Below are positions 1,709-28,317 of a DNA stretch of 39,197 nucleotides, in pieces. The stretch comes from a virus. Position 1 is the first letter of the stretch. Each line of letters opens with the position of its first letter. The notes below the pieces were generated by a model that saw only the letters and a program-made list of their open reading frames with translations, did not search any database and had not been told where the DNA came from. The position numbers and the translations under genes were made by a program. The stretch lies in IMG/VR virus record IMGVR_UViG_3300027944_000097. One strand, given 5' to 3'.

Positions 1709-2359
1709 ATGCACGCACAAAACACGATCATCTTCATAGGCTTGGCTTTCGGCTTGATCCTTCTGGGATATTACATCCGCAAGCTCATCCTCCAGGCGCT
1801 GGCACGCAGCTACAACGCGGGCTTAAACGAGCGCAACGGCCTGCACAGCCAACGCATTGCAGCGCTTAACACCGACCTCACAACCATCACAAAACTTCGC
1901 AATCAGGAAGCCCAGCAACTGGCAGACCTGCGCTTGCAAATGCATGGCATCAAGACAACCCCGTTTACCTCAACCGATTACCGGAACCTCACCGAAATCA
2001 CCCAGTTCCTGGCGCTGGCGCTCCAGACCTGGAAAGCGCTGAAAGGCACCGAAGCTAGCCAAGCGAGAGCAGAACAGCTGATCAAGATCGCCCGTGCCAT
2101 GGCGTATCGAGTTTTTCACATTGTGGAGACGGCCGGCAGCCTCAACAACCAGCCGCTGGATACTCAGCTGATCGATTGGCTCGATCAAAGCGGCACCTTC
2201 CACGCTGAGCCCAAGTTGAGTTCAATCAGTTTCCCCCACGGAGCCGAAACCGAGGGATATCCGCATTTACGTGATGCGTTGCGCGAAGCCTACGAACTGG
2301 ATCTCCGCCGGCGTACGCTGGGGCTGCCCGCCGGTAGAGCAGCCGGAGCTGCAGCATGA
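1709..2359 (+). CDS. Membrane-anchored coiled-coil protein, unknown function
   Basis: 216 aa. N-terminal hydrophobic helix (IIFIGLAFGLILLGYYI) followed by a helical/coiled region. Its stop overlaps the next start (ATGA). Confidence 0.55.
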   Translation: MHAQNTIIFIGLAFGLILLGYYIRKLILQALARSYNAGLNERNGLHSQRIAALNTDLTTITKLRNQEAQQLADLRLQMHGIKTTPFTSTDYRNLTEITQFLALALQTWKALKGTEASQARAEQLIKIARAMAYRVFHIVETAGSLNNQPLDTQLIDWLDQSGTFHAEPKLSSISFPHGAETEGYPHLRDALREAYELDLRRRTLGLPAGRAAGAAA

Positions 2360-4185
2360 CCGCCTTCCAAACGCAGCTATCAGCCGACTGTGGAGGCGCC
2401 ACGAATTTGCGCCTACGGGGATCCCGCCGCGGCTCGAAAGCCGAAAGCAAAATCTTCAACCCCACCCCAGTTACCAGCGCGGTAAACACCCAATTCGGCT
2501 TGAATCTGACAGGCGGGATTCGTGTTGATCTATTCGCTGGCGGCGGCGGCGCAACGATGGGTCAGGAGATCGCTACCGGGCTACCAGTAGACATCGCTAT
2601 CAACCACGACCCTGACGCCATCAGCATGCACAAGCGCAACCATCCAAGCGCTGAGCATTACATCACCGATGTCTATGAAGTCTGTCCGCATGTCGCCACG
2701 CGAGGCCGGCCGGTTCTGCACCTGCATGCCAGCCCTGAATGCACCCACCACAGCTTGGCGGCTGGGGGCCAGCCACGCAGCACTACCAGCCGCTCCCTGT
2801 CTTGGGTAGTCATCAAATGGGCGGGCCAGGTTCGCCCCTTGATGATCACCATGGAGAACGTCATGCAGGTGCTCCAGTGGGGCCCGCTCATCGCCAAGCG
2901 CGACCCGAAAACAGGCCGCGTAGTCTGTCGAGACCTGCGCGTCGCCGATGTCGGCGAGCGCGTCCCAGTCCAGGACCAATATCTGATCCCCGACCCTAAG
3001 CGCAAGGGCCAGACATGGCGCCGGTTCGAGTCGATATTGCGCGGTATGGGCTACGACCTTCGCCACGGAAAACTGAAAGCGAGCGACTTCGGCGCCGGCA
3101 CACTTCGCGAACGCCTATACCTGGTAGCTCGATGCGACGGCAAACCACTCCAATGGCCCGAACCCTCCCACGCCAAGGCGCCGGGAAAGGGGCAAAAACC
3201 GCAGCTCACCGCTGCCAGCAGCATCGATTGGTCCATCCCCTGCCCGAGCATATTCTTGGACAAGGAAGAAGGCCGCGCCGCCGGCGTGCGGCGTCCACTG
3301 GTCAATAAGACAATGGAACGGCTCCGGAAAGGTGCGCAGCGTTACGTCATCGATCACGCAGACCCATTCATCGTCAGCGTCAACCACTCCGGCAGCGACG
3401 ACTCACGAGTTCACTCTGTTCACCAGCCAACGAAAACCATAACGGGCTCGCATGGGTTCGCGCTGGTGACGCCGCAGTTGGCGCCATTTATCACAGAGCA
3501 CGCAAACAGCAGCGTCCAGCGCAACATGGCCGGAGATTCGCCTCTCTCCACCATCTGCGCGAACGTCAAGGGTGGACACTTTGCATTGACCGTGGCTTAC
3601 CTGGCCCAACACAACGGTGGATTCAACACCACACCCGGGCACCACCCAGTCGAGCCCATGACTGCGATCACGACAACCGGCAGCCAACAGAATGTCGTGA
3701 CAGCTCACCTCTGCACGCTCCGCAAAAACTGCGTAGGACAACCAATGGATGGCCTGGTACCGACCATCACGGCCGGCGCCGAGCACCACGCGCTAGTCGA
3801 ATACACCCTCGCGCCTGAGTATCAAGCGGGCGCCTTGCGCGTGGCGGCATTCCTCATGGGCTACTACGGCACGGACAACATCTACGACGTCCGCGAGCCG
3901 GCCGCCACCATCACGACCCGGGACCGCCTGGCGCTAGTGACCGTAACCGTAAAAGGCACTCCATACGTGATCGTCGACATCGGTATGCGCATGCTCACTC
4001 CACGCGAGCTGTACCGCGCCCAAGGCTTTCCCGATAACTACGTCATCGATTCAGGACACGACGGACGCAAGTTCAGCAAACGCGCCCAGGTGCGAATGGT
4101 CGGCAACTCGGTCTCCCCGCAGCCGATGGCTGCGCTGATACGGGCCAACCTGGACGAGCCCCACGCCGAACGGAGGGCAGCATGA
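2356..4185 (+). CDS. DNA (cytosine-5)-methyltransferase, orphan, unusually long (609 aa)
   Basis: Motif I DLFAGGGGATMG. Catalytic motif HASPECTHHS (P-x-C type). Motif VI TMENV. C-terminal RELYRAQGFPDNY and GNSVSP (motifs IX/X region). A long insert of about 250 aa sits where the target-recognition domain is expected. No restriction endonuclease gene is adjacent. Confidence 0.85.
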   Translation: MTAFQTQLSADCGGATNLRLRGSRRGSKAESKIFNPTPVTSAVNTQFGLNLTGGIRVDLFAGGGGATMGQEIATGLPVDIAINHDPDAISMHKRNHPSAEHYITDVYEVCPHVATRGRPVLHLHASPECTHHSLAAGGQPRSTTSRSLSWVVIKWAGQVRPLMITMENVMQVLQWGPLIAKRDPKTGRVVCRDLRVADVGERVPVQDQYLIPDPKRKGQTWRRFESILRGMGYDLRHGKLKASDFGAGTLRERLYLVARCDGKPLQWPEPSHAKAPGKGQKPQLTAASSIDWSIPCPSIFLDKEEGRAAGVRRPLVNKTMERLRKGAQRYVIDHADPFIVSVNHSGSDDSRVHSVHQPTKTITGSHGFALVTPQLAPFITEHANSSVQRNMAGDSPLSTICANVKGGHFALTVAYLAQHNGGFNTTPGHHPVEPMTAITTTGSQQNVVTAHLCTLRKNCVGQPMDGLVPTITAGAEHHALVEYTLAPEYQAGALRVAAFLMGYYGTDNIYDVREPAATITTRDRLALVTVTVKGTPYVIVDIGMRMLTPRELYRAQGFPDNYVIDSGHDGRKFSKRAQVRMVGNSVSPQPMAALIRANLDEPHAERRAA

Positions 4186-4468: not shown

Positions 4469-5536
4469 ATGCGCCCGAGAAAAACCTCTAACCGGGACCT
4501 GCCGCCCCGGATGATCCGCCGCGAGCGAGAAAGAAAGAACGGCACCGTCTGGTCCAGCTACTACTACAACGGTAGAACTGCCGAGGGGAAGCGGAAAGAG
4601 ATTCCCCTCGGCAGCGACCTGGACGAAGCAAAAGTTGAATGGGCACGTCTTGACCGCAAGGCGGTACCGAAGCCGGCCCACCTGATGGGCCGGCTGTTTG
4701 ATGACTACGAAACCAAAATCATGCCGGGCCTTACCAAGGGCACGCAGGATGACTATCGCAAGGGACTGAAGCAACTGCGCAACTCGTTCGAACAGGCCCC
4801 TGTCGATGCTATGACGCCACAGGTGATCGCTCAGTACCGTGACACCAGGACGGCGAAGGTGCGGGCCAACAGGGAGATAGCCCTGCTGTCCACAATTTTC
4901 ACCCACGCCAGGGAATGGGGGTTTACCGACAAGGCAAACCCATGCTCCCGGCTGCGCCGGAACAAAGAAATCCCACGGGACTTCTACGCCGGCGAAATCG
5001 TCTGGGATGCAGTGTATGCCCAGGCACCACCTGAACTGAAAGACGCCATGGACCTGGCCTACCTGACCGGCCAGCGCCCCGCTGACGTACTGAAGGCATC
5101 CGCTGCGGATATCAACAACGGCTTCTTGCTGGTGGGCCAAGGAAAGACCCAGAAGCGTTTGCGAATTCGCCTGCATGACGGGGCCACCGCATCCAGCCTG
5201 AGCACGTTTCTCGACGAACTCCGTGAACGCAGAGCCATGGCTGGAATTAGGACCTCCAGCCTGATCACCAACAAGAACGGCTTGCGCATGAGCTACGCGA
5301 TGTTACGCAACCGCTGGGATGAAGCGCGGGAGAAGGCAGCAGTTAAGGCTGCGACCGAGGGTGACACAACGTTGAGTGCTGCCATTCGTCAGTTTCAGTT
5401 CCGTGATATTCGTCCGAAAGCAGCGAGCGAAATCGAGGACTTAACCGACGCCAGCCGTCTGCTTGGGCACTCGACTGAAGAAATGACAAAGAGGGTTTAT
5501 CGCCGAGTCGGGGAGATCGTGAAGCCGACAAAGTAA
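4469..5536 (+). CDS. int: Tyrosine recombinase / phage integrase
   Basis: 355 aa from the ATG at 4469; the track ORF starts earlier at 4310. Contains LAYLTGQRPADVL (catalytic Arg box) and C-terminal LLGHSTEEMTKRVY (H-x-x-R...Y). Followed by a terminator and a tRNA-derived att core. Confidence 0.9.
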   Translation: MRPRKTSNRDLPPRMIRRERERKNGTVWSSYYYNGRTAEGKRKEIPLGSDLDEAKVEWARLDRKAVPKPAHLMGRLFDDYETKIMPGLTKGTQDDYRKGLKQLRNSFEQAPVDAMTPQVIAQYRDTRTAKVRANREIALLSTIFTHAREWGFTDKANPCSRLRRNKEIPRDFYAGEIVWDAVYAQAPPELKDAMDLAYLTGQRPADVLKASAADINNGFLLVGQGKTQKRLRIRLHDGATASSLSTFLDELRERRAMAGIRTSSLITNKNGLRMSYAMLRNRWDEAREKAAVKAATEGDTTLSAAIRQFQFRDIRPKAASEIEDLTDASRLLGHSTEEMTKRVYRRVGEIVKPTK

Positions 5537-5600
5537 CAGCAGGTTGCGGAACACCTCTCGAAAGTTGCGGAACACATCACCTAGAAACAAGCACAAAAAA

Positions 5601-5631
5601 GCCCCGTAACTCATTGAGCTACGGGGCTTTT
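5601..5631 (+). terminator. Rho-independent terminator after int (A-tract upstream, so possibly bidirectional)
   Basis: The stem gccccgta (5601-5608) pairs with tacggggc (5620-5627). It is followed by tttt and preceded by aaaaaa. Confidence 0.8.
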
Positions 5632-5636
5632 AATAG

Positions 5637-5686
5637 TGGAGGCCGAAGTCGGAATCGAACCGGCGTAGGTGGATTTGCAATCCATC
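5637..5686 (-). other. attP core: 3' portion of a tRNA-Cys(GCA) gene (anticodon arm to CCA), not a complete tRNA
   Basis: The reverse complement reads ..atgga-ttGCAaa-tccac-ctac-gccgg-ttcgatt-ccgac-ttcggcc-t-cca. This gives an anticodon loop with GCA, a T-arm with a TTCGATT loop, the acceptor 3' strand and CCA. No matching D-arm or 5' acceptor strand (ggccgaa) follows. The outermost anticodon-stem pair and one T-stem pair are mismatched. Confidence 0.8.
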
Positions 5687-5868
5687 AACTTTACTCTGTA
5701 TTTCAATAGGTTAGCACTGGAAGCGTTCCGCAAGCTACTGATTTTTAACACGCTACAGGCCGCGTCCCGCCTGGCTCGCCTTTTCAGTTGCGGAACGCTT
5801 TTTTGGATCCAGAAGTAGGCTGATAGCAGCTCGTCGCCTCACCCTCGCCTCAACCGGGCCGCCTGAAT

Positions 5869-5888
5869 TACTGTATATGCAAACAGTA
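5869..5888. promoter_or_regulatory. LexA (SOS) box
   Basis: TACTGTATATGCAAACAGTA is a perfect CTGT-N8-ACAG core. It matches 17 of 20 positions of the classical TACTGTATATATATACAGTA consensus. It ends 20 bp before the ATG at 5908, and a TATAAG -10-like hexamer (5887-5892) overlaps its right edge. Confidence 0.75.
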
Positions 5889-5907
5889 TAAGGCAACCGT
5901 CCCTATC

Positions 5908-6663
5908 ATGAACTTTGAACAGGCCAAGGCGCTGAGGATCCAGCAATGGCGCAATACGCTCGACGACCACGACTTTCGGATGCAGAACCCCGAGGCGTAT
6001 CGGTCATGTCTGCTTTCGGCAAGTGCAAGGCTTGCCGAAGAACGGCTGATTGATCGAATCGAACAGTTCGACATGGACGAGTTGGCGAATTCCGCATATT
6101 GGTTGGCCGTGGAGGAACTGCAATCCATAGCGTGCCTGTACCACAGCTCGTCGTATTACGACCTGGTGGCGCGGGACGGCTCGCCCAACCTTGGCACGAT
6201 TCAGCAGTCGACATTTACGGAGAGAAGCGAAGGCCCCCGCATTCACCCTTACGATGGGAAGGTTTACCGCCAAGGAGAGAAGCTGAAGCTTATCTACAGC
6301 ACATCACCAACCAACGGCGTGATTGAAGGGCTTGTTCTCACCCTGGATGACGGCCGCAAGTTTGACCTGGTCGAGACGGCCCAGATGATCAACGGAGTGA
6401 TCCACACCCCCATCGAAGACCCCGACGTCTATCGTTGGCTTGTCGACGCTATGCAAATCGCAGATGAAAATCGTAACCTGAAGTTGATGGTGAAAATACG
6501 ACCTGTGCTTCAGCTCGCGCGCTTCATAAAATGCATCGAATGCGCCGATCGTTTTGGGTTGAGGGATGAATGCGCAGCATGCGATGGCCTTGGGTTTATA
6601 CACAAACCGTGCAGACCGCGCGTCCCCATTGATGTAATACGCATTGATGAGGAAACAATCTAA
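5908..6663 (+). CDS. Cargo protein with a C-terminal C4 zinc finger (CIEC...CAACDGLG, DnaJ-like CxxCxGxG), function unknown
   Basis: 251-aa ORF directly downstream of the SOS box. The C-terminus reads FIKCIECADRFGLRDECAACDGLGFIHKPC. No enzymatic motif recognised. Confidence 0.6.
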   Translation: MNFEQAKALRIQQWRNTLDDHDFRMQNPEAYRSCLLSASARLAEERLIDRIEQFDMDELANSAYWLAVEELQSIACLYHSSSYYDLVARDGSPNLGTIQQSTFTERSEGPRIHPYDGKVYRQGEKLKLIYSTSPTNGVIEGLVLTLDDGRKFDLVETAQMINGVIHTPIEDPDVYRWLVDAMQIADENRNLKLMVKIRPVLQLARFIKCIECADRFGLRDECAACDGLGFIHKPCRPRVPIDVIRIDEETI

Positions 6664-6735
6664 CAAAGCCTCATTCAGGCGAGTAAATTAGGTAACATTT
6701 ATCCCTATTGGTATCACTTCTAAATCGAGGCAGCT

Positions 6736-7488
6736 ATGCGCATAAAACTTTCCTGCATGACGTGCGGTATGGAAGAGCTAGAGGCGGCGCGCCTGATAGA
6801 TCCGAGCATAGCTAGCATTAGCGTATCGCCTCTGGAAAGCACATCCTTTGAATTAAAGGAAGAAGGCCTCTACGTATTAGAATGCGAGAAGGGTCATATC
6901 ACCTACACCCAGCTGCAAGAGCAGAAATTCCAAGTTCTTTTTGAACTCGGGGCATACGCAATTGCAGACGGCTATTACAGAGACGCTGTCGCCTCATTTA
7001 CCGCAAGCCTAGAAAGATTCTATGAATTTTTCATCAAGGCCAACCTATACGAAAAGAAGTTCAACGATAAACAAATATCAGAATTTTGGAAACAGATATC
7101 CAATAGCTCTATAAAACAAGCAGGATCATTTTCACATGCATATTTCCACACTTTCGGGGAAAACCCTCCACAGCTAAGCAATCGCAAGACAGAGTTCAGA
7201 AACGAAGTCATTCACAAAGGAATCATCCCAACCCGCCAACAGGCCATAGACTATGGAGAAGTAATAATTGATTTAATATCACCAACCCTTCAAAAAGTAC
7301 AAGAAACAATGCCAGATGGTGTATGGCAAACCATTAGAGCTCATCTTGCCAAAACAGTACTTGCCAATCTCGACAAGAATATTATAACTAGAGGCACACC
7401 AATGTTGCTTAGCCTAACCCACGCCGACAAAACGACCAGGCCAAATTTACTTGGCGCGATTGCGACCTACACAGACCGAAACAAGTAA
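6736..7488 (+). CDS. Zinc-ribbon plus HEPN-like (RNxxxH motif) protein; candidate RNase toxin / Abi-type effector
   Basis: 250 aa with an RBS (gaggcagctATG). N-terminal CMTC...CEKGH (C7, C10, C50, H54). An all-helical middle region (YYRDAVASFTASLERFYEFFIK) is followed by FRNEVIHKG at nt 7198-7215. That is the Rx4H HEPN signature with the typical Asn after Arg. This is the most AT-rich gene in the window. Confidence 0.5.
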   Translation: MRIKLSCMTCGMEELEAARLIDPSIASISVSPLESTSFELKEEGLYVLECEKGHITYTQLQEQKFQVLFELGAYAIADGYYRDAVASFTASLERFYEFFIKANLYEKKFNDKQISEFWKQISNSSIKQAGSFSHAYFHTFGENPPQLSNRKTEFRNEVIHKGIIPTRQQAIDYGEVIIDLISPTLQKVQETMPDGVWQTIRAHLAKTVLANLDKNIITRGTPMLLSLTHADKTTRPNLLGAIATYTDRNK

Positions 7489-7491
7489 AAT

Positions 7492-8691
7492 TTACCCAAC
7501 CACTCCTCCAACATCCATAATCTTAAGCGAGGCCGAAAATTTCCGAGTAGTAACAATCGACGGATCCTGAAGAGCAATAACTAGGCGCTGGCTACCCACC
7601 ACTACAAATGAAGGAGAAGAAAAATTACCGCCACTGACCAGCTCGGTGACATCTCCATTCAATAGATCTTTAATTACTATTCCACCAGTAGCCGGGGAGT
7701 ATACAGCGCTCCGCCCTGCATCAGCTAACGCCGCCCCGCCTGCGTAGGTGTGCACAGCCACGTCAGCAATGCTTATGTTGGAAAGGCAATAGCCATTCTC
7801 GACATCGACCACTACCACCCTGCTCAATCCAAGCCTCCCGCCTTCACGCATTTCCGTATACGAAACCGCTACTGTTTTTTTTGAGATCCATGCCACTTCG
7901 AATGGAACTGTATCTACCAAGCTCGCACTACCCAACTCAATGGGGAATTCCGTTTTGGTCTTAAACGCATCGGAGGTTACTACAACAGTCAGACCAAGAT
8001 GGCGCTTTTCAGCAGCTGAGTAGATGGCATAAGCCATTGCGCATCGGCCAGTCGAAGATAGGGATAACGGCGTTGAATAAGGAAAAGTCCCAGGACCGCG
8101 CCCCGCAATTTGTATAGCGTCACTCCAGCTATCTCCACCATCATCAGATACCCTAGCGACAACCTTGCGCCATTCGCCGGATGAGTACCTGCTAGCATTC
8201 TCTTGAAGCGTGTGCATCAACACTATTTTTCCGTCGTGGAGGGCGGACAACGATGCGTATGTTGATCGACCACCGTCAATTACACGAGAGGCGGCCCATT
8301 TACCTACCAACCCGGGCTGAGCAGTCCGTGCAAAATATAGGGGCGATGAATGATTGCTAAAACAAGCAATCACATGACCAGCATATTTTCCTGACGGCAC
8401 ACGCACCAGTGAGGGCGATCCATGGTCGCTAGCGCCTTCAAATTTATGCAACTTCACTGTTCTACCGACCAGCAGTTGATTATTTATTTCAGACACCAAT
8501 ACGTCGCCGGAGGAATTTATATAACCAATACAGAACCCCCCATTGACTTCAGCAACAGCCGGCCGGTTGTACCACAGGCTATACGCGTTATTAATGATAA
8601 GTGGCCGAGGCGGCATATAACGTTGAACGAGAGGGATAGAAGTAAAAGCCGCGATAATCCCTGTCGAAATCAGAAAACCCCTACGATTCAT
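7492..8691 (-). CDS. Tat-signal-bearing BNR/Asp-box (sialidase-fold-like) exported protein
   Basis: The N-terminus MNRRGFLISTGIIAAFTS fits a twin-arginine signal (RRxFL plus a hydrophobic stretch). There is one clear Asp-box, SDDGGDSW. The protein is beta-rich. ATG at 8691 is preferred over the track's TTG at 8694. The gene lies at the distal end of the late/lysis transcription unit. Confidence 0.45.
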   Translation of the reverse strand: MNRRGFLISTGIIAAFTSIPLVQRYMPPRPLIINNAYSLWYNRPAVAEVNGGFCIGYINSSGDVLVSEINNQLLVGRTVKLHKFEGASDHGSPSLVRVPSGKYAGHVIACFSNHSSPLYFARTAQPGLVGKWAASRVIDGGRSTYASLSALHDGKIVLMHTLQENASRYSSGEWRKVVARVSDDGGDSWSDAIQIAGRGPGTFPYSTPLSLSSTGRCAMAYAIYSAAEKRHLGLTVVVTSDAFKTKTEFPIELGSASLVDTVPFEVAWISKKTVAVSYTEMREGGRLGLSRVVVVDVENGYCLSNISIADVAVHTYAGGAALADAGRSAVYSPATGGIVIKDLLNGDVTELVSGGNFSSPSFVVVGSQRLVIALQDPSIVTTRKFSASLKIMDVGGVVG

Positions 8692-8762
8692 CAACTCTAC
8701 TCGCCCACTTGAAAATCTGGATTATGACACCTCCCGCACCGCCAACCACAGCTTTGCTTGGG

Positions 8763-9272
8763 TCATTTTCCTCCAATCACTGCATGGACATAGGCTTGGC
8801 AGGCCTTTAGAGCTATCAGCCCCCGATCGCCGGCGTCGGTGATGGCGACAATTCTTTGAGCATGCGCTGGGTCAAGTTGGGCTCGACGGGCTCCATGAAC
8901 CACGCCGCCGGCGCCGGCGGTGGTAGACACTGGGCTGCAACTGGCTGAATCCTCGAGGAGGACTGACAGCCGGACATCAGCAGTAGCGAGGCGATCACGT
9001 AGGCGATCCTGATCACGTTGGGCATCGGTAAGGGCTCGGTAGTGGGTTTGGTCGCTGGCCGTCAGTCGCTGTTCCAGGGCCAGTCGTTTGGCCTGCTCGG
9101 CCTTGGCCTGGTTGGCGGCCGCGCTGCTGATACTGTCCAGGTCGGTTCGGTGCAGGTTGGCCTGCTCCGCCAAACGCACGCCGTAGCGCCAGTCCTGGAC
9201 CTTCCATGTCGCGCTCATGGTGACGACAACGGCTAGGCCCGCTATCAAAAGCTTCACGGTTCCGGGCGTCAT
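8763..9272 (-). CDS. Rz-like i-spanin
   Basis: N-terminal transmembrane segment (LLIAGLAVVVTMSA) followed by a long charged coiled coil. The start overlaps the endolysin stop (ATGA). It contains an embedded lipoprotein ORF in another frame. Confidence 0.8.
   Translation of the reverse strand: MTPGTVKLLIAGLAVVVTMSATWKVQDWRYGVRLAEQANLHRTDLDSISSAAANQAKAEQAKRLALEQRLTASDQTHYRALTDAQRDQDRLRDRLATADVRLSVLLEDSASCSPVSTTAGAGGVVHGARRAQLDPAHAQRIVAITDAGDRGLIALKACQAYVHAVIGGK
8816..9025 (-). CDS. Rz1-like o-spanin (lipoprotein) embedded within Rz
   Basis: 69 aa with a signal peptide and lipobox (ASLLLMSGC). The mature part is proline-rich (CLPPPAPAAW). The ORF lies entirely inside the Rz ORF in a different frame, which is the classic embedded spanin architecture. 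Confidence 0.75.
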   Translation of the reverse strand: MPNVIRIAYVIASLLLMSGCQSSSRIQPVAAQCLPPPAPAAWFMEPVEPNLTQRMLKELSPSPTPAIGG

Positions 9273-9802
9273 GCCAGCACCTCAAGCGCCCTAGCGTATA
9301 GCTTTCGCCGATCTTCAGCGCCGTTCTGGCCGCCGTTGATCCTATGGGTGATCTTGTCGAACTCACCGGTGTCCGCCAAGCTGTTCAACCCGCGAGTTGA
9401 CCAGAACCACGCCGCCGACTTCGCGGCCCATTCTGGCTGCTCCAGCAGCTCAGGCCGGCCCAGTAGATTCAGGCCCAGGGCCTCGCCACACTCGGCGTAG
9501 TTGGCCCGCCCGGTGATTTGGATCAGGCCTCGCCCAAGGAACTTGAAGCCGTCACCCGCCAAGGTATTGCCGAGGTCTGCCCGGCCTTCGTAACGACTCT
9601 GGGCTGGCGTGGGCCCCCAAAGTTCGCGGGCGTAGCGCAACTGACCGGACTCATGACCAACCTGGGCGATGAAGGCGGCCACACGCTTGAGGCCAATGAT
9701 CTGGTAATGGCCCATAGATGTGTTGAGGGCAGGCGCAAAAACACGGGCTTTAACACCGGCGTTCGGGAGGATGAACAAAAGCTGTTGCACGGTGACAGGC
9801 AT
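9269..9802 (-). CDS. Endolysin, glycoside hydrolase family 19 (chitinase-like lysozyme)
   Basis: The segment AAFIAQVGHESGQLRYARELWG...YEGRADLGNT..GDG.KF.GRGLIQITGRANY is the GH19 core. The ATG at 9802 has ggagaaacaagt upstream; the track start is 9820. Confidence 0.85.
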   Translation of the reverse strand: MPVTVQQLLFILPNAGVKARVFAPALNTSMGHYQIIGLKRVAAFIAQVGHESGQLRYARELWGPTPAQSRYEGRADLGNTLAGDGFKFLGRGLIQITGRANYAECGEALGLNLLGRPELLEQPEWAAKSAAWFWSTRGLNSLADTGEFDKITHRINGGQNGAEDRRKLYARALEVLA

Positions 9803-9817
9803 ACTTGTTTCTCCGGA

Positions 9818-9840
9818 CAAAAAAAATCCGCTTTAGCGGA
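9818..9840 (-). terminator. Intrinsic terminator inside the late operon, just upstream of the endolysin RBS
   Basis: The minus strand reads tccgc-taaa-gcgga followed by tttttttt (plus strand aaaaaaaatccgctttagcgga). Confidence 0.65.
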
Positions 9841-9869: not shown

Positions 9870-10214
9870 TCATCGGGGCATTGGATAGCGCAGCTTTATT
9901 TCTGCAACCTTCGCCATCCAGACCGAATAATCCACTTCGGTTCCGGCTACCATCGCGTCGTATTCGGCCTCGTTCTTTAGCGGATCCGACTCATCGCGGT
10001 ACGCTGCCTGGCGCAGCGCTTGAATCCGCTCCGCGCTCATGGGCTCGACGATTGGCGCAACGAAGTCTGCCCCGTCATAGACCCAACCCTGCTGCACCGC
10101 AGGGCTGACTGGCAGCCACACCAGCGATGGATGGAACCTTCCATCTGGATCGTCGTTCGTTAGCTCAACCACACGCCCCTCAGCCACCCGAGCCCAAACT
10201 GATTTGCTCACCAT
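9870..10214 (-). CDS. Tail fibre assembly/chaperone-like protein
   Basis: 114 aa, located immediately 3' of the fibre genes and overlapping the upstream stop. The WVYDGADFVAP-type segment is common in fibre assembly proteins. Confidence 0.5.
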   Translation of the reverse strand: MVSKSVWARVAEGRVVELTNDDPDGRFHPSLVWLPVSPAVQQGWVYDGADFVAPIVEPMSAERIQALRQAAYRDESDPLKNEAEYDAMVAGTEVDYSVWMAKVAEIKLRYPMPR

Positions 10215-10966
10215 AAAATCACCACCGCACCAGGTGCCCCGCTTCCGCCGTTAAAAGTCGCCCGCGCACCGGCACCACCGCCACCCGGAACAGTCGAGGT
10301 GTTGCTATTACCGTCTGCACGATATGCGCGTGGCCCGCCACCACCACCGGTTCCGCCTTCTATACCTGAAGCGAAACCGCCAGCACTCCCACCCATATTG
10401 AGCGTGCCACCGAAGCCGATTCCGCCGCCGCCAGCAAGGTTCAACTGCCCACCTTCACCGCCGGTTGCGCTACAGAAGCTGCCGAAAGAAGACGATCCAC
10501 CATCAGTGCCTGCACCCTCCGAAACGGAGCGCCCGATACCGGCAGAGCCGACGGTTACACTCACTGAGGCAACCGCAGAAACATCACACAGCTCGACAAC
10601 TACACCGCCACCGCCGCCACCACCACTGCCGACACCCGGGGTATCCGATCGCCCCGCGCCGCCACCACCGCCAATTACGATTACGAAACAGCGAGTAGTG
10701 CCGGATGGCTTTGCCCAGGTACTGACGCCAGCCGTCAAATACACCTGTGAGTTCCGATAACCGCCGAACGCCCGCAATGTGTTTGCAAGCTGATTGAAAT
10801 CCCCCTTTACCAGAGGGATCCCCGCGGCCTCAATTGCCTTCGCAACGTTCTCCTGAAGGTCATTCAGCCATTCCGCTGTAACTACGGTTGCCGGTACTCC
10901 CCCGGCTGGACTTCCGTTTGTGAATTTCTTATCGACCGTAGCCGACGGGCTATCGATTCTGTGCAT
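10208..10966 (-). CDS. Tail fibre protein with a glycine-rich C-terminal domain
   Basis: The N-terminus MHRIDSPSATVDKKFTNGSPAGGVPATVVTAEWLNDLQENV is a conserved prophage tail-fibre N-terminus. The C-terminal half consists of GGGG-rich repeats. Confidence 0.65.
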   Translation of the reverse strand: MHRIDSPSATVDKKFTNGSPAGGVPATVVTAEWLNDLQENVAKAIEAAGIPLVKGDFNQLANTLRAFGGYRNSQVYLTAGVSTWAKPSGTTRCFVIVIGGGGGAGRSDTPGVGSGGGGGGGVVVELCDVSAVASVSVTVGSAGIGRSVSEGAGTDGGSSSFGSFCSATGGEGGQLNLAGGGGIGFGGTLNMGGSAGGFASGIEGGTGGGGGPRAYRADGNSNTSTVPGGGGAGARATFNGGSGAPGAVVILW

Positions 10967-10975: not shown

Positions 10976-12715
10976 TCACTGTGCGATGAGCTGCCCAATG
11001 GCCGTATAGCCTTGGACGTTCGGGTGAATACCGTCTGATTGCGTTAAGCCCGGGGACATGAAGTCATCCCCAATTTTGACCGGCTGCATGATGTCGATCG
11101 CAGCGACGACCCCAGTAAGCGTTGGCATCTGGGATGTCCACCACGATCGCATGTAGTTGCGCAGGTCCGGGCCTGGCTGGTTGTCCGCACCGGCCTGTGT
11201 TCCGTACATTGCATTCAGCAACACGACCTGACCGCCAGCTGCATTGATCGCATTGATCGTTGCCTGAATGTTCTGCGTGCGAGATGTTTGGCTTACGCCA
11301 AGCGCTTCGTCGTTGCTGCTCGCATGCAGGAACACCACACGGGGTGAGGCTCCCGTCACCTCTGCTATCCGACTCAAGATCTGCGCGCTTGTGTTCCCGC
11401 CAACGCCTTTGTTGACAATCAAGTTATTGCGCAACGCCGGGTAGATCAGCGCATGACGCTGCCACGTACTTTCATAGTCCGTGATCGAAAGCGACGGGTT
11501 AGGGCTAAAGAGCGTCTTCCCTTCGCAGATGCTGTCACCAATAGCAATGATGTTTGGTCGGCATAGGGTGAGATAGTCGAACTCAATCCACGCGCCCGCC
11601 GCCGACCCAGTTGTGGTCAGGACTTGGATATTTGGCGCTGAGAACCAGTCGCAGGCTACCCGTGCGCGGTACAGCCATGAACCATCAGCGCCCCGGGTGT
11701 ACATCGTCAGCGAAAGGAATTTACTATCAAAATGCAGCGCGAACTCCAGCCAGTTGGCTTCATAGTTGAATCCGGACAAAGCGGTCGCGCTGTTGCGAGT
11801 ATCAGCGCCGGTTGTTCCTACCAGAGTGACCTCACCCGGAGCCGCAGCAGAGGTGCCTCCCGAGCCCAACCACACTGCGACCTCTTTCGTTCCGTTAAGT
11901 AACCAGATAACACCCACCGTATCAGCGCTATAGCGAGCACGGGCCTTGCCGTAGAGGATGTAATCCTGCGCAGCAGAAGTAAAACTGATCGCTTTGGAGA
12001 TACTGGAATTTGAGCCTGCAGCAGTTTTCACTTGGCGTAGAACGCTCCCCGCCAGTGTCATGGAGGCGTTACTGGCTGTCCAACCTGCTGTGGCCGTACC
12101 CTCGTCGTTAAATGTCGCATTGTCCCCGGCAATAGCAGGCAGACCACCCGCGTAGCCCGCGCCATAAACCGCCAGCCGCTGTGCGAACCAGGTTGTGCCG
12201 GCGTCTACCGATGTGAAGCGAACCAAGGTGATACTGCCCGCCTCCGGCGAGGCGAGTGATAGCACCCCGGCCGGAAGCCTGACTGATGCAGGTGGCGCCA
12301 CCCATCGTCCACCTACCGCGTCCTGAGTGAAAATCACATTGATCTCGGTTGCCATGCCAGCAACCGCACCGGACAGGTTCAAGGTCGATATCGATGCGTT
12401 GAGCAAGACCCCCCAGTAGCGTCCAATTGAAGCGCTCAGCGTGACTGTGCCGCCCGATATTGCTGCACTGGTGTACTTGTTAAGCTTGGTGTTAGCGGCC
12501 TCCAAAACCGCCACTCGGCCAGTGAGCGCCGGGACACCACCGAGCGATGCCGCGTGCAAACGCTGCCATTCAGCGATGCTTGGAACAGATCCTGATTCCG
12601 TGCTTATGTAAGTGTTCTCGGCGCCATTAGCCACCTGCTTAAATATCTCGCTAGCGCCCTCGGCCTTGAGAGCGGCGGACTCCAACCGATCATTGATGTC
12701 TTCCGTACCACTCAT
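10976..12715 (-). CDS. Tail fibre/tailspike with a C-terminal SGNH (GDSL) hydrolase domain
   Basis: 579 aa. The C-terminal third shows all four SGNH blocks: IIAIGDSICEG (I), NKGVGGNT (II), HASSNDEA (III) and SDGIHPN (V, DxxH). The N-terminal part is Ala/Gly/Ser-rich and fibre-like. Confidence 0.75.
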   Translation of the reverse strand: MSGTEDINDRLESAALKAEGASEIFKQVANGAENTYISTESGSVPSIAEWQRLHAASLGGVPALTGRVAVLEAANTKLNKYTSAAISGGTVTLSASIGRYWGVLLNASISTLNLSGAVAGMATEINVIFTQDAVGGRWVAPPASVRLPAGVLSLASPEAGSITLVRFTSVDAGTTWFAQRLAVYGAGYAGGLPAIAGDNATFNDEGTATAGWTASNASMTLAGSVLRQVKTAAGSNSSISKAISFTSAAQDYILYGKARARYSADTVGVIWLLNGTKEVAVWLGSGGTSAAAPGEVTLVGTTGADTRNSATALSGFNYEANWLEFALHFDSKFLSLTMYTRGADGSWLYRARVACDWFSAPNIQVLTTTGSAAGAWIEFDYLTLCRPNIIAIGDSICEGKTLFSPNPSLSITDYESTWQRHALIYPALRNNLIVNKGVGGNTSAQILSRIAEVTGASPRVVFLHASSNDEALGVSQTSRTQNIQATINAINAAGGQVVLLNAMYGTQAGADNQPGPDLRNYMRSWWTSQMPTLTGVVAAIDIMQPVKIGDDFMSPGLTQSDGIHPNVQGYTAIGQLIAQ

Positions 12716-13395
12716 AACGCCTCCAGGTCATTCGGTAACTCATAGTTCGCTGCAAAGAACAGCCTGTCAGCCGCTGAAAATGTCTGCTCTGCTTCGGGGG
12801 CGCCGTATGAGAAAAGAACGTGGGTGTGTGCCGGCTTCAGTTGATTGAGCTTGCACTCCAGGGAACCATTACCCCAAGAAAGGAGCGGTTCACCGGCGCA
12901 GGATCGACCCGCACGAAAGGAAATAACTGTGGTTTCAGGAGCATTAACCCGCCACGTGAAAATCCAGTCTCCGTTTGTAAGAGGATCCCCTGCTACCGAT
13001 ACCCCAGCACGAAATGGACGGTACTCTGTGATCGTTACTTCAAAACCAAGCGCCTTGGTTATTGCAGTGAAGTAAGCGATTGACTGCCCGCCGGTACCGT
13101 TGATTTTAGAAAGCAATGCATTACGGCGCCCCTGGAGCGTGTCCTCCAGCTTGCCGTTGCACCTATCTGGTAGACCTGCGACACGCTCCCAATCAGGTAG
13201 CAGCTCATTGATGGTGGTCGGCTCCATCTCAGCGAGCAGGTCCAGGCCTCGCCCTTCGATGCGCTCGAACTCCATGGCGAGACCAGCCAAAACTCGATCA
13301 AGTTCAGGGGCAAACTCAGGGGCCCAAGCCGGGCCATGCGGAAGCAGGCTTCTAAGCTGATCAAGGTACTGCTCTGCCGTTCTCCCTAGAGCCAT
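12712..13395 (-). CDS. Mu gp48-like / DUF2313 baseplate-tail protein
   Basis: The N-terminus ..YLDQLRSLLPHGPAWAPE is typical of the YmfQ/DUF2313 family. The gene sits after the baseplate J gene. Confidence 0.65.
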   Translation of the reverse strand: MALGRTAEQYLDQLRSLLPHGPAWAPEFAPELDRVLAGLAMEFERIEGRGLDLLAEMEPTTINELLPDWERVAGLPDRCNGKLEDTLQGRRNALLSKINGTGGQSIAYFTAITKALGFEVTITEYRPFRAGVSVAGDPLTNGDWIFTWRVNAPETTVISFRAGRSCAGEPLLSWGNGSLECKLNQLKPAHTHVLFSYGAPEAEQTFSAADRLFFAANYELPNDLEAL

Positions 13396-14423
13396 GTGAT
13401 GCCCCCAAAAGTCAGCAACTGATTAGGCGCAGCCACCACATCATCGTGGGGAGCAATCAGGTCGTGATCGGTTTCGCCGGAGGAACCGCTGATTGCTTCA
13501 GCGATATGAGTCAGCAGTAGAACACCGCCCAGATCAGCCTCGCGATCGTGCAGATCGATTAACTGCGCCTGTATTGCTGCCCGCACAGCAGTGGTATCGG
13601 GCACTGCATGAATCACATACGGCACCGGCGTATTGACCGGTGCCAGAACGTACAGCTCAGCTGTGACAGGGCGCAGCGGATCGACATAGGCTTTCACCGC
13701 TGCGAGCTGGGCTGGATTTGGCACGGGCTCAGGATCGCCGTCACGCATCACAAAAAGCCCAACAGTGCCAAGGCCAAGGTAATTGGCCCTACACCAAGCA
13801 CGGGTGACCCCAGGCACCTCCAAGGCCCAGGTTTCGTAGTCATCAACCGAGCCGCCATGAGGGGTTACCCGATAGGATCGGATTACCCGGGCACGCAACG
13901 ACTCGATGCTTTCCTTGGCGATTCCGCCTGTAAGCCCAGGTGCCAAAACGGTAAAAGTGTTGGTGACACCAGCCACCGGCTGCACCAGCGTCAGCACCAG
14001 GCCCGCATCGGCGTTGCCGAGGCCGCCAGCATCTACCGCTTCCAGCGCCACGCTATTGGGTCCGGAAACGGCGGTAACATTCGTCGTAACTCGGTAAGTT
14101 CGGCCGTCAGCCGCCTGAAGCACGGTCTCAGCGTCAACCACTGCACCCGCCACCGAAATGAATGACGCCGTTCCTGAAGCGGGTTGCGCCGGTTTCCTCG
14201 GTTGGGCCAGGCGCAACAGCGCGATCCGCTCCAGCGTTTCTTCCTCGGCCCGATCGGGCAGGATCTGGTCGGCGATCCAGTCAAGGTAACCGTATAGACC
14301 ATAGGCGGTGCCAGCCAAGGTGCGAGCGAGCACCTGAGCGTCGGAACGTCGGAGCGAATCGCTGGCAAGATCGCTTTGGGTGCGATCGATCAACACCGGT
14401 AGCGAAGGCGTTTCAAACGGCAT
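13386..14423 (-). CDS. Baseplate J-like protein (Mu gp47 / P2 gpJ family)
   Basis: 345 aa, positioned between the gp46-like and gp48-like genes. The overall pattern is typical of Baseplate_J proteins. Confidence 0.7.
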   Translation of the reverse strand: MPFETPSLPVLIDRTQSDLASDSLRRSDAQVLARTLAGTAYGLYGYLDWIADQILPDRAEEETLERIALLRLAQPRKPAQPASGTASFISVAGAVVDAETVLQAADGRTYRVTTNVTAVSGPNSVALEAVDAGGLGNADAGLVLTLVQPVAGVTNTFTVLAPGLTGGIAKESIESLRARVIRSYRVTPHGGSVDDYETWALEVPGVTRAWCRANYLGLGTVGLFVMRDGDPEPVPNPAQLAAVKAYVDPLRPVTAELYVLAPVNTPVPYVIHAVPDTTAVRAAIQAQLIDLHDREADLGGVLLLTHIAEAISGSSGETDHDLIAPHDDVVAAPNQLLTFGGITWL

Positions 14424-14811
14424 AGATCACCTGCCATGAAGGGGTAGATGGAATTTCCAGGCGCCTGCCATCCTGGATGGTCAGAACCACGCCAAGGTTT
14501 AATCGATTGATGGCGGTCCGAGTGCTGTTGATGGATACGTCCAGGACGTGACCGTCATCGAGCAGCCAGCGCAACGCCTCAGCGGCGTAGAACTCGGCGT
14601 CACGCTGGGTAGCGTCGGTGAGCTTGACTCGCCGCAGCAGCCAAAGGCGCGAGCCAATGCGATCATCTGCAATGGCCGGGTAGCTATCGCCCCACCAACC
14701 ATACAATTGGTCATCGTCCACCGGGTCGTCCGTATCTGCCCGGCGCCAGGTGTAGAGGCTGATCACCACCGCACGAATCAAAGCGGACTCAATGGAAGTG
14801 TAAGTAATCAT
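14413..14811 (-). CDS. Phage GP46 family baseplate protein
   Basis: 132 aa. Contains YGWWGD...GSRLWLLRRVKLT....AE.YA.EALRWLLDDG, which is characteristic of GP46. Confidence 0.6.
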   Translation of the reverse strand: MITYTSIESALIRAVVISLYTWRRADTDDPVDDDQLYGWWGDSYPAIADDRIGSRLWLLRRVKLTDATQRDAEFYAAEALRWLLDDGHVLDVSINSTRTAINRLNLGVVLTIQDGRRLEIPSTPSWQVIYAV

Positions 14812-15317
14812 CAGCCCCCCGCGGCGGGCACACCGCTCTGACCGCTCCCCGGCTGGGTTCCTGTGTGGACGTGGCCGACCTGACTAATTCCGGCGGCCAA
14901 CTGGTCGCCACCCGAAACAATCTTGCCGGTCTGATTGATCACCGGGGTTTCGAAGTTCACCGCCGTCGAGGCCTTGATATTCAGCGTGCCGGTTTCAATA
15001 TCAATGACGCGACCGCGCTTCAAATGGATCTTGTCGCCCTCGTCGGTATAGATTGCCACTTCGCCCGGCGCCATGGACTGAATCCGGTACCGACGGTCAG
15101 CCGCGACCAACACCACGGCGTGGGACCGGTCGCCACCGATAAAAGCCGCCAGCACTTCGGCACCGGCCAGCGGGTTGCTGGTGAAGCCATAAGGCTCGAA
15201 GTGCTCGGCATTGTCCTTCAGCTCCCCGGCGGTCAGCCGCATTTGCAGGGACTGCATTTTCTTCAGGGCGTCGACGAGCACGACAGTGCCGCGGGCCAGC
15301 ATGTTTTTCACGGTCAT
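14811..15317 (-). CDS. Baseplate assembly protein V / spike (Mu gp45-like)
   Basis: The start was reset to the ATG at 15317 (MTVKNMLARG..), which overlaps the upstream stop as ATGA. The protein has a gpV-like OB-fold N-terminus and ends in a Gly-rich tip. Confidence 0.65.
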   Translation of the reverse strand: MTVKNMLARGTVVLVDALKKMQSLQMRLTAGELKDNAEHFEPYGFTSNPLAGAEVLAAFIGGDRSHAVVLVAADRRYRIQSMAPGEVAIYTDEGDKIHLKRGRVIDIETGTLNIKASTAVNFETPVINQTGKIVSGGDQLAAGISQVGHVHTGTQPGSGQSGVPAAGG

Positions 15318-16429: not shown

Positions 16430-16432
16430 GGA

Positions 16433-17689: not shown

Positions 17690-17692
17690 GTT

Positions 17693-19708: not shown

Positions 19709-20135
19709 CACTGCACCTGCTGGGCTGCGTTAATTCGTTGGGCGTGCTCCAGGGATTCACAGAGCACATCCAGTGGCCTGGCCATCATCTGTTCGGGGTC
19801 AACCTTCCAGAACCAGGCCAGGTCATAGGCGGCTGCAATCAGGTCGCCGATGGCTGCGACGCCGCACTCATGAAAAAACCGGCGACGGCCCAGCTCAAGG
19901 CGTTCAGGTCGGACAGGTCCAACTGGTTGACCGAGGACGGCGGGATGCAGGCGCAGACTGCGATGTATTTCGCGGCGACGTCCATGTCCAGGCTGACTTC
20001 CTCGTTTTTGTCGATCTTGTACGGCAGCGCCTTGATGGCCCGCACTTCCTGCACCGTGGGCCGGCGCATGGTGAGTTCAGTGATCGGCTCGCCGTGAGCC
20101 TCAATCGCGACCTGAAGCTTCTGAACGTGACTCAT
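19708..20135 (-). CDS. Tail assembly chaperone, -1 frameshift fusion product (gpE+E'-like)
   Basis: The slippery site T TTT TTC is at 19878..19872 on the minus strand, in the X_XXY_YYZ register. The -1 frame is then open for 55 codons (HECGVAAIGDLIAAAYDLAWFWKVDPEQMMARPLDVLCESLEHAQRINAAQQVQ). It stops at a TGA (19708-19710) that overlaps the tape measure ATG. Confidence 0.7.
19839..20135 (-). CDS. Tail assembly chaperone (P2 gpE / Mu gp41-like), zero-frame product
   Basis: 98 aa, located between the tube and tape measure genes. It contains the slippery heptamer T_TTT_TTC near its 3' end. Confidence 0.75.
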   Translation of the reverse strand: MSHVQKLQVAIEAHGEPITELTMRRPTVQEVRAIKALPYKIDKNEEVSLDMDVAAKYIAVCACIPPSSVNQLDLSDLNALSWAVAGFFMSAASQPSAT

Positions 20136-20479: not shown

Positions 20480-20497
20480 GGTCTGTGTCTCCAGAAT

Positions 20498-20520
20498 GAA
20501 AAAGCCCGCACAGGGCGGGC
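20498..20520 (-). terminator. Terminator-like hairpin between the sheath and tube genes
   Basis: The minus strand reads gcccgc-cctgt-gcgggc followed by tttttc. Confidence 0.55.
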
Positions 20521-20539
20521 GGGGTGTCGTGGGTCGGGG

Positions 20540-22835: not shown

Positions 22836-22858
22836 GCTTGAGTCCGTTGGGGCAGTGA

Positions 22859-23753: not shown

Positions 23754-23755
23754 AA

Positions 23756-24307: not shown

Positions 24308-24310
24308 GGC

Positions 24311-24679: not shown

Positions 24680-24701
24680 GATGCTACCTGTATAGGAAAT
24701 T

Positions 24702-24723: not shown

Positions 24724-24729
24724 TAGGGA

Positions 24730-28315: not shown

Positions 28316-28317
28316 GC

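Follow-up and report, generated by a model that had tools for sequence, protein, structure and literature searches.

The IMG/VR virus record IMGVR_UViG_3300027944_000097 (39,197 nucleotides; the window, by which we mean this whole stretch of DNA) carries three neighbouring genes between its putative phage attachment site and its lysis genes: ORF1 (251 residues; 5908..6663, plus strand), ORF2 (250 residues; 6736..7488, plus strand) and ORF3 (399-400 residues; 7492..8694, minus strand, with a likely start ATG at 8691). A sequence-only reading of the window had placed these three open reading frames (ORFs) as we find them, and had described all of them as cargo on one AT-richer island at 5690-8750, the likeliest site in the window for an undescribed system. 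Here we delimit a smaller island that holds ORF2 and ORF3 only, and compare its position and content with those of related prophages. Our main point concerns ORF2, a member of an unannotated zinc-ribbon–HEPN family that appears to repeat the design of the defence protein RAZR without detectable homology to it.

The island and its slot

The backbone of the window has a guanine-plus-cytosine (GC) content of about 0.59-0.62. A dip starts at about 6.5 kb, reaches its minimum of 0.38 at 7000-7199 and ends at about 8.75 kb. The twelve 60-nt lines within 6736-7488, previously counted by hand as low in GC, indeed average 0.43 (range 0.33-0.57), against a mean of 0.60 (standard deviation 0.06) for lines of the structural region (13000-30000), among which 0.7% lie at or below 0.45. 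ORF2 as a whole, at 0.434, stands at z = -7.2 relative to 750-nt windows outside the island (mean 0.595, standard deviation 0.022), and ORF3 has a GC content of 0.50, against 0.59 for the backbone. Codon usage, examined together with sliding GC as the sequence-only reading had suggested, is shifted in two of the three genes: GC at third codon positions (GC3) is 0.450 in ORF2 and 0.451 in ORF3, compared with a mean of 0.673 (standard deviation 0.075, minimum 0.53) for 34 backbone ORFs, while ORF1, at 0.643, is backbone-like, its overall GC of 0.536 being lowered by GC at second codon positions.

DNA homology between the window and related prophages extends from 5826 to ~6122, as far as 6582 in one case, and is back at 8753-8791. 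Because this homology runs through ORF1 and resumes only there, the true island is the segment at ~6.6-8.76 kb, with two genes, ORF2 and ORF3, and with ORF1 outside it. The variable, AT-richer stretch without DNA homology to related prophages spans 6583..8752, and GC over 6600-8760 is 0.47. Thus the compositional dip stands, and the left boundary at 5690 does not. Repeats flanking the island are short and at chance level, without direct repeats or insertion scars beyond these, and an Rfam scan of 5400-9000 returned no credible match. A search of GenBank phages for near-identical DNA found one 200-nt stretch only (window 4527-4728), within the integrase gene.

To place the island in a wider context we used 32 related loci, namely 30 IMG/VR prophage loci that encode ORF1 and the Pseudomonas aeruginosa phages Meadow and LPPA36. 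An Rz homologue lies 3' of ORF1 and convergent with it in 24 of the IMG/VR loci, and the spacing from ORF1 to the lysis gene varies from 0.5 to 4.2 kb across these 24 prophages and the two P. aeruginosa phages. The slot so defined usually holds a SRAP/YedK-like gene (PF02586, E 2e-45), from zero to three low-GC genes and a D12 Dam methylase; Pfam confirms both the SRAP and the D12 methylase genes. The low-GC genes differ from locus to locus, and include one PD-T7-3 (PADLOC E 9e-27), which is a validated defence gene, one gene with a GAF domain and one weak Csx28 match. Relatives of ORF2 and ORF3 are absent from all 32 loci. The suggestion that syntenic phages would reveal a variable hotspot is therefore borne out: the flanks are fixed, the content is variable, the composition is foreign and a known defence gene is found among the alternatives, all of them features of prophage defence or moron hotspots. 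The region is an accessory-gene slot of a temperate Pseudomonas phage, bounded on the left by a putative attP and the SOS-controlled ORF1 and on the right by the lysis cassette. In the window phage the SRAP gene, the low-GC genes and Dam of most relatives have given way to two single-gene cargos, each mobile without the other. Taken as a whole, with the roles proposed below for ORF2 and ORF3, we consider our explanation reasonably probable. Such att-proximal moron or defence slots are already well known as a phenomenon, and this one, from LexA box to Rz, gives a fixed point from which Pseudomonas fluorescens/putida group prophages can be searched for accessory and defence genes.

ORF1 itself is a conserved backbone gene and not cargo, because it is present in all 32 relatives and has backbone-like GC3; conservation with the phage backbone and a backbone-like composition are what the sequence-only reading had itself named as grounds for giving up the cargo idea. 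The idea of a three-gene cargo thus survives for ORF2 and ORF3, which have low GC3 and occur in none of the relatives, and is to be abandoned for ORF1. A perfect LexA (SOS) box, TACTGTATATGCAAACAGTA (5869..5888, plus strand), lies 20 nt upstream of the ORF1 start codon; it fits the γ-proteobacterial operator consensus used here, TACTGT-N8-ACAGTA, for which 0.02 occurrences are expected by chance. A CTG-N10-CAG LexA box is found at -35 to -41 from the ORF1 start in 32 of 32 loci, within otherwise variable sequence, so that the SOS box reported upstream of the plus-strand genes is both genuine and maintained, and ORF1 is predicted to be LexA-controlled. The protein matches phrog_19595 (E 7e-68) and has 125 homologues, nearly all from Pseudomonas. 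A helical bundle at its N-terminus is followed by a domain rich in β structure, a pair of helices and, towards the C-terminus, a zinc knuckle of the invariant form CxxC-x9-CxxCxGxGF; in the alignment the final ~20 residues, past the knuckle, are unique to the window phage, and this tail marks a recombination junction. An AlphaFold2 (AF2) model of ORF1, with a predicted local distance difference test (pLDDT) score of 79, had no meaningful fold match in PDB or BFVD; the likeness was confined to the ~70-residue N-terminal bundle and was to ribosomal protein S20 or to small phage proteins that are themselves uncharacterised, which is uninformative.

Most relatives have ORF1 paired with SRAP, a hint of some accessory role connected with DNA damage. 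We also considered ORF1 as a LexA-controlled antirepressor, a role suggested by the place of such a gene at the end of a prophage and for which Tum of coliphage 186 is a precedent. Such a factor is not required here, as the phage's own CI repressor carries an S24 self-cleavage domain, and nothing was found in favour of the idea.

Some further features of the slot in relatives deserve mention. In most of them (L004-L033; e.g. L010:4648-5340 and L010:5931-6734) the SRAP/YedK-like gene follows directly after the LexA-controlled ORF1 and Dam lies beside Rz, and the window has neither gene; in one relative (L009) the SRAP gene is split in two. The SOS-controlled ORF1–SRAP operon of Pseudomonas prophages is possibly of interest in itself. 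Low-GC (0.42-0.44) slot segments in three relatives (L009:5905-6126, L010:5369-5695 and L011:9474-9800) contain ORFs with an internally repeated MHDFHFSCNKHF... motif, and may be repetitive non-coding DNA instead of genes.

ORF2, a zinc-ribbon–HEPN protein

ORF2 is preceded by a GAGG ribosome binding site 5 nt upstream of its ATG and encodes what we read as a stand-alone protein with a zinc ribbon followed by a HEPN domain. C7, C10, C50 and H54 would bind the zinc, and residues 11-44, between the two pairs, form a hypervariable insert. Alignments of 35 and of 45 family sequences show R155, N156 and H160 (an R-N-x3-H motif) to be invariant, together with C50 and H54; C10 is conserved in at least 90% of members and C7 in most, and there are two further conserved blocks, SLERFYEF and SERQLG. 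Conservation, expressed as the majority fraction, is lowest in the zinc-ribbon insert (0.26), compared with 0.81 in the first HEPN helices and core. In the AF2 model (pLDDT 92.5, predicted template modelling score 0.88) a β hairpin joins the CxxC and CxxxH ligands and is followed by a helical bundle, with helices over residues 64-210. The best match to this model in the PDB is 2q00, which we take to be a HEPN protein (probability 0.99, TMt 0.69, E 0.24); the weak matches include AbiV, and none has an E-value below 0.1.

Direct Pfam, NCBIfam and PADLOC scans of the ORF1, ORF2 and ORF3 proteins gave nothing significant, so that the search with defence-system hidden Markov models and for remote homology, another check proposed earlier, was silent for the single proteins and informative for the ORF2 family. 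The PADLOC model for Csx1/Csm6 CARF+HEPN proteins is matched, over its C-terminal part, by 16 of 45 family members (best E 7.5e-9), the CARF_HEPN_mCpol model by three of the 45 and the Cas13a model likewise by three. With an R-x4-6-H motif on a core helix, an all-α bundle and profile similarity to the Csx1/Csm6 model, ORF2 is, as judged from sequence and model, a HEPN-superfamily protein, nearest within the superfamily to the Csx1/Csm6-type domains. The family is large: when its profile was searched against 1.84 billion cluster representatives, 1,999 clusters (50% identity) matched at E ≤ 1e-3, and 1,303 of these still did so at E ≤ 1e-30. Almost without exception the proteins have 230-270 residues. 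It is spread over many phyla and is absent from Pfam and PADLOC. Pattern scans of IMG/VR with the single ORF2 and ORF3 sequences found no match, and alignment-based scans did find loci.

The distribution of these relatives suggests a gene that travels alone. A scan of one genome per species yielded 159 loci, whose hosts belong to Proteobacteria, Bacteroidota, Cyanobacteria, Nitrospirota, Actinomycetota and other groups, and relatives were also found on nine plasmids, in 40 IMG/VR contigs and in the Bacillus phages SPbetaL4 and SPbetaL6. For the homologue in the last two phages we found no published function; the paper that describes them treats Gad1 and Gad2, at another locus. When genes around ORF2 relatives were clustered all against all, no conserved neighbour emerged across 78 loci (of 80 kept), the largest neighbour cluster comprising six loci. 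Similarly, the genes no more than two positions away from an ORF2 relative, 149 in all from 57 loci, fall into 126 Pfam families, many of them housekeeping; the remainder include integrases, IS110 transposases, KAP NTPases, DUF4145 and SMODS/SLATT proteins. PADLOC recognises among the neighbours type I and type II restriction-modification genes, a cyclase and two-transmembrane (2TM) effector of CBASS (cyclic-oligonucleotide-based anti-phage signalling), Old/GajA and PifA/QatA, as well as PD-T7-4 (twice), PDC-S13, PDC-S20, PD-T4-2_A and NsnA. In IMG/VR contigs of at least 20 kb, the ORF2-family gene lies less than 4 kb from a contig end in 12 of 27 cases, against 22% expected (p = 0.008).

Two phage fragments, L125 and L126, have the nearest relatives of ORF2 (51-53% identity) in this same slot. 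The former begins with a helix-turn-helix gene and a distant homologue of ORF1 (32% identity), behind which, after 13 nt, come the HEPN gene and then Dam; the latter has an att fragment, a 61-residue ORF, the HEPN gene and Rz, with neither ORF1 nor ORF3. Because there is no conserved neighbour and the gene recurs in the slot of these two fragments without ORF3, ORF2 is a self-contained, horizontally mobile single-gene module that the slot has captured repeatedly and independently of ORF3.

In the window, ORF2 starts 72 nt past the ORF1 stop codon, and a scan of this gap predicted no terminator-like site and recognised no promoter of ORF2's own. Given these two results and the gap of only 13 nt in L125, we infer that ORF2 is likely co-transcribed from the LexA-repressed ORF1 promoter. 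At the other end of the gene, the stop codons of ORF2 and ORF3 are convergent and 3 nt apart (7486-7494), leaving no intergenic terminator; the sole terminator-like hairpin downstream of ORF3 (7360-7377, minus strand) lies within the ORF2 coding sequence, on the opposite strand. Read-through from either gene would enter the other in antisense.

Our best guess from sequence and predicted structure is that ORF2 is an abortive-infection ribonuclease (RNase). The variable N-terminal zinc-ribbon module would sense a phage-derived trigger, which would switch on a composite R-N-x3-H active site made by HEPN dimers or oligomers; the activated protein would then cut tRNA, rRNA or mRNA and so stop translation in the infected cell. 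Through the ORF1 promoter it would be present at a basal level in the lysogen and strongly expressed during SOS and prophage induction.

Several points count against this proposal. The role suggested for the family is read from its sequence, its predicted structure and its genomic context, and within that context the share of defence genes among the neighbours is a raw tally that has no matched genomic background. ORF2 alone scores only E 0.011-0.015 against HEPN models, its residues 61-180 aligning to positions 217-330 of the 357 in the Csx1/Csm6 model; none of 35 members has a significant match to a Pfam HEPN family, and the family profile found no match among PDB sequences even at E 10. Moreover, ORF2 sits behind a LexA-repressed promoter, whereas a defence gene is expected to be on in the lysogen, and its position fits a role in the induction phase at least equally well.

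ORF3 and the borders of the slot

The second cargo gene, ORF3, which we read as encoding a BNR/sialidase-like β-propeller, is co-oriented with Rz and lies 68 nt downstream of it. Its N-terminus, MNRRGFLISTGIIAAFTSIPLV, has a twin-arginine motif (MNRRGFL; S/T-R-R-x-F-L-K type) with a hydrophobic segment behind it. Among 26 homologues, R4 and R5 are each kept in at least 90%, and ORF3 is predicted to be exported by the twin-arginine translocation (Tat) pathway. It also has an Asp-box, SDDGGDSWS (SxDxGxTW-like), in which D185, G186, G187 and W190 are invariant. The ORF3 family profile matches sialidase chains in the PDB (E 1e-5 to 4e-4), and many homologues have precomputed PF15892 matches, which are flagged as weak where contexts are shown. 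The description of this gene as exported and BNR-like, made previously from the letters alone, is thus supported by the twin-arginine N-terminus, the Asp-box and the weak BNR_4 and sialidase profile matches.

The family has 45 members, almost exclusively from Pseudomonas, and the MNRRxFL N-terminus is conserved among them. Five of the six genomic contexts of ORF3 homologues are chromosomal Pseudomonas O-antigen or lipopolysaccharide (LPS) clusters, with WbpL/WbpM-type, Acyl_transf_3-SGNH, C5-epimerase, rmlBDAC and Wzy genes. The sixth (L122) is a prophage in which, as in the window, an SGNH tail fibre gene and two small genes lead on to endolysin, Rz and finally the BNR gene; host genes follow directly, and over window 7736-9276 the DNA identity is 71%. 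Three IMG/VR contigs carry an ORF3-type gene near a contig end, one of them with the same C5-epimerase and acyltransferase neighbours. In an O-antigen cluster with WbpL, WbpM and Acyl_transf_3-SGNH, a 34-residue remnant of the Rz C-terminus (59% identity, E 4e-8) lies just upstream of the chromosomal ORF3 copy (L120:7820-7921, L121:4838-4939), and at another locus (L116:7058-9422) the ORF3 homologue lies between a comEA-like HHH_3 gene (111 residues) and a 49-residue HHH_3 fragment, an arrangement that resembles the target duplication left by site-specific insertion. On account of the Rz remnant and the HHH_3 duplication, at least some of the copies in O-antigen loci look phage-derived, which suggests gene flow from the phage terminus into the O-antigen locus.

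The window encodes a tail-fibre-like protein of 579 residues (10976-12715, minus strand) with a C-terminal SGNH/GDSL esterase domain (PF13472, E 2e-15), to which the tail fibre of the L122 prophage is 70% identical. We take this domain as a sign that the phage recognises an acylated surface polysaccharide, which may thus be its receptor. Those BNR_4 proteins that have been characterised are polysaccharide lyases (families PL25 and PL42), which cleave rhamnose-uronate linkages (PMC13193363, PMC8377490). From its sequence features and its relatives' surroundings, ORF3 is probably a conversion gene, whose product would be exported and, as an enzyme active on carbohydrates, would alter O-antigen or LPS. 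Its substrate in the periplasm would be O-antigen or some other polysaccharide of the cell surface, and the altered receptor for this phage and its relatives would result in lysogenic conversion or superinfection exclusion. Three observations weaken this interpretation. The score of ORF3 against BNR_4 (PF15892; 19.7 bits, E 6e-4) is below the Pfam cut-off of 27.3 bits, the link to O-antigen may be partly positional in that some chromosomal copies may be prophage-end relics, and the place of ORF3 downstream of late lysis genes, in the same orientation, fits late expression as well as lysogenic expression.

To the left of ORF1, the segment at 5537..5801 looks like attP, with arm-type integrase sites around a core that would mimic the 3' part of a tRNA. 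It includes four arm-type repeats, TTGCGGAAC, at 5544, 5565, 5725 (minus) and 5788, hence three direct and one inverted; 0.54 copies are expected, and there are none elsewhere in the window. Just past the stop codon of the integrase gene lies a perfect hairpin of 17 bp (5597-5631), which resembles a terminator when read on the minus strand. After it comes a degenerate tRNA-Cys(GCA) fragment (5641-5707, minus strand), which ARAGORN called at a relaxed threshold only; neither ARAGORN at default settings nor Rfam found a complete tRNA. Window positions 5595-5749 are 85% identical to the equivalent sites of two relatives (L015 and L017), and the excisionase and integrase genes lie just upstream. 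With the tRNA-Cys fragment, the TTGCGGAAC repeats and both recombination genes alongside, the att-proximal position claimed for the island is upheld. Further upstream, ahead of the excisionase gene, is a gene for a 609-residue C5 cytosine methyltransferase-like protein (2356-4185, plus strand), and phage Meadow has a related methylase at the same relative position.

The right border of the slot is conserved and is formed by the Rz spanin gene (PF03245; 8763..9272, minus strand). Out of frame within it, on the same strand, lies a gene for an Rz1 lipoprotein (8816-9025) whose signal sequence ends in LLLMSGC (lipobox LMSGC), and a GH19-type endolysin gene follows (9269..9820, minus strand). A glycine-rich protein (PF21722) is encoded at 10208-10966, again on the minus strand, and adjoins the tail fibre.

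Alternative readings and known systems

Could the three genes, adjacent as they are, form one undescribed multi-gene system on a single island, for example with a sensor, an effector and an exported component? ORF1 and ORF2 lie on one strand and are probably read from one promoter, and in L125 a distant ORF1 homologue again precedes the ORF2 homologue by 13 nt. The distributions nevertheless largely refute this, and we hold it to be very improbable: the 32 related loci have ORF1 and lack both other genes, no ORF1-like or ORF3-like gene is found near ORF2 relatives in 78 loci, L126 has ORF2 beside att and Rz without the other two, ORF3 relatives occur without ORF2, and GC3 is backbone-like in ORF1 but not in ORF2 and ORF3. 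The three genes are not one system, and ORF2 and ORF3 are unrelated, separately acquired cargo; the expectation of an undescribed system in this region remains plausible for ORF2 alone, as a single-gene candidate from an unannotated family. A partner for ORF2 could have been overlooked if it were the toxin of a HepT/MntA-like toxin–antitoxin pair, as HEPN RNases are common among type VII toxins (PMC13000451) and a small ORF precedes the L126 homologue. We give this little credence. The lack of a conserved neighbour in 78 loci speaks against a conserved partner or antitoxin, no nucleotidyltransferase recurs among the top Pfam families of the 149 neighbours, and the gene upstream of ORF2 in the window is ORF1, which 30 relatives have without ORF2. 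A stronger contender, although one we still judge unlikely, is that ORF2 serves the lytic programme of the phage or counter-defence, either as an RNase, SOS-induced or made in the induction phase, with which the expression of the host or of a rival phage is shut off, or as a HEPN nuclease that destroys cyclic-oligonucleotide immune signals. The gene does follow directly on ORF1, which is conserved and LexA-controlled, and the gap holds neither a predicted terminator nor a predicted promoter for ORF2; family members occur in the lytic-capable phages SPbetaL4 and SPbetaL6. Its nearest known HEPN domains are those of Csx1/Csm6, and some Csm6 HEPN domains degrade cyclic oligoadenylate too. Yet most members are chromosomal in diverse bacteria, between housekeeping genes or beside defence genes, they have no CARF or other ligand-binding domain, and the hypervariable zinc-ribbon insert is more like an arms-race sensor.

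For ORF3, the competing explanation, a serious one, is that of a late egress factor, a receptor-destroying or polysaccharide-degrading enzyme that strips O-antigen or exopolysaccharide so that progeny virions escape from debris. ORF3 closes the late operon, 68 nt beyond Rz, a position that would suit such a role, and this order is kept in L122 and, as a scar, in L120 and L121; the sialidase-like fold class and the lyase activity of characterised BNR_4 enzymes (PMC13193363, PMC8377490) would suit it too. The persistence of chromosomal copies in O-antigen clusters without lysis genes, however, implies usefulness to the cell outside lysis, and Tat export, being slow and dependent on an energised membrane, would be a poor fit to expression minutes before lysis. 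We consider an egress role rather unlikely, and prefer to regard ORF3 as a conversion gene.

The slot recalls the hotspots of P2 and P4 prophages and satellites (PMC9122126), which likewise are fixed in position between conserved phage genes near att and variable in content, anti-phage systems included. Here the phage lineage is a different one (the related L122 prophage has Mu-like baseplate genes), most members carry SRAP and Dam, the window has a probable surface-modifying gene and the left border is a LexA-controlled gene. With the PL25 and PL42 BNR_4 lyases and sialidase propellers ORF3 shares an Asp-box and a weak match to the BNR_4 and sialidase profiles, and its relatives adjoin rmlBDAC and C5-epimerase genes; it differs in its BNR_4 score below the cut-off, in its Tat signal and in belonging to Pseudomonas O-antigen loci and prophages rather than to marine polysaccharide-utilisation loci. 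Phage seroconversion modules such as iap/wzyβ/oac of P. aeruginosa phage D3 and the enterobacterial gtrABC are att-proximal prophage cargo for which a change of O-antigen and a block to superinfection are predicted. The same holds for ORF3, but it shares no sequence family with them and is a soluble exported propeller instead of a membrane glycosyl- or acetyltransferase or a polymerase inhibitor. It could represent a new enzymatic type of seroconversion, and the link that it makes between prophage termini and O-antigen clusters suggests a phage route by which surface-polysaccharide diversity is seeded.

As to ORF2, the HEPN domains of Csx1/Csm6, the ancillary RNases of type III CRISPR systems, are the only known family with significant similarity to the ORF2 family, and share the R-N-x3-H motif; ORF2, in contrast, has neither a CARF domain nor a CRISPR neighbourhood, and a zinc ribbon takes the place of the ligand-sensing domain. 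ApeA (bioRxiv 10.64898/2026.01.26.701840) and the DUF4145 protein BxaP (PMC10799925) are, like ORF2 as proposed here, stand-alone HEPN proteins that act by abortive infection without an antitoxin. ApeA, at ~580 residues, has three domains, with HEPN at 335-583 in Ec2ApeA, against 250 residues in all for ORF2. One ORF2 relative is labelled 'Apea-like HEPN' in UniRef. Membership of ApeA was rejected, HEPN_Apea being matched by one of 35 members at E 0.046 only, with no PADLOC match to ApeA.

The closest parallel in design is RAZR (ring-activated zinc-finger RNase, PD-T7-4), in which an N-terminal zinc ribbon binds ring-shaped phage proteins and sets specificity, and a C-terminal DUF4145 HEPN-like RNase domain with R146 and H154 brings about abortive infection (PMC13017515). 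Both RAZR and ORF2 are single-gene proteins of ~220-250 residues with an N-terminal zinc ribbon as their most variable part, a linker and a C-terminal HEPN-type helical domain with Arg and His, and both are spread across phyla, often near integrases or on mobile elements (PMC9519451). The variability of the ORF2 zinc-ribbon insert parallels that of the specificity-determining zinc finger of RAZR (PMC13017515). They differ in the spacing of the catalytic-type motif, R-x4-H with RN in ORF2 (FRNEVIHKG) as opposed to R-x7-H in RAZR-like neighbours (GNxGAH-like; R146...H154 in RAZR), and in the zinc site, CCCH in ORF2 and Cys4 in RAZR. ORF2 as a member of the RAZR/DUF4145 family was rejected on three grounds: the PADLOC PD-T7-4 model matches none of 45 family members yet two of their neighbours (E 2.5e-13), DUF4145 is absent from the Pfam families matched by any of 35 members, and hhalign of the family against two RAZR-like sequences gave a probability of 0.3%. 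Both kinds of gene meet in tandem pairs, an ORF2-family gene directly followed by a RAZR-like gene, in Oceanobacter kriegii (L049:8001-9595) and Pseudorhodoferax soli (L073:8001-9323); the RAZR-like partner has a Cys4 zinc ribbon and an R-x7-H GNxGAH motif, is called as PD-T7-4 by PADLOC and is unrelated to the ORF2-family gene.

By analogy, then, ORF2 probably works like RAZR or ApeA while being a member of neither. A more far-reaching reading, which we put forward only tentatively, is that the ORF2 family may comprise single-protein immune sensors that reached the RAZR design independently and are wired here to a LexA-controlled operon, whereby immunity would be boosted during SOS or induction, and that ORF3 may be a new kind of conversion factor, Tat-exported, that trims O-antigen, possibly a lyase, moved from phage termini into chromosomal O-antigen clusters, as suggested by the Rz remnant next to one chromosomal copy. 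These findings do not overturn current concepts. If ORF2 is indeed an anti-phage RNase, however, a widespread single-gene system has been missed by PADLOC and Pfam, and its members, being small, soluble and well modelled (pLDDT 92.5 for ORF2), are readily testable. The combination of a zinc-ribbon sensor with a HEPN effector, as in RAZR, would then have arisen more than once, and would be a general principle rather than a one-off.

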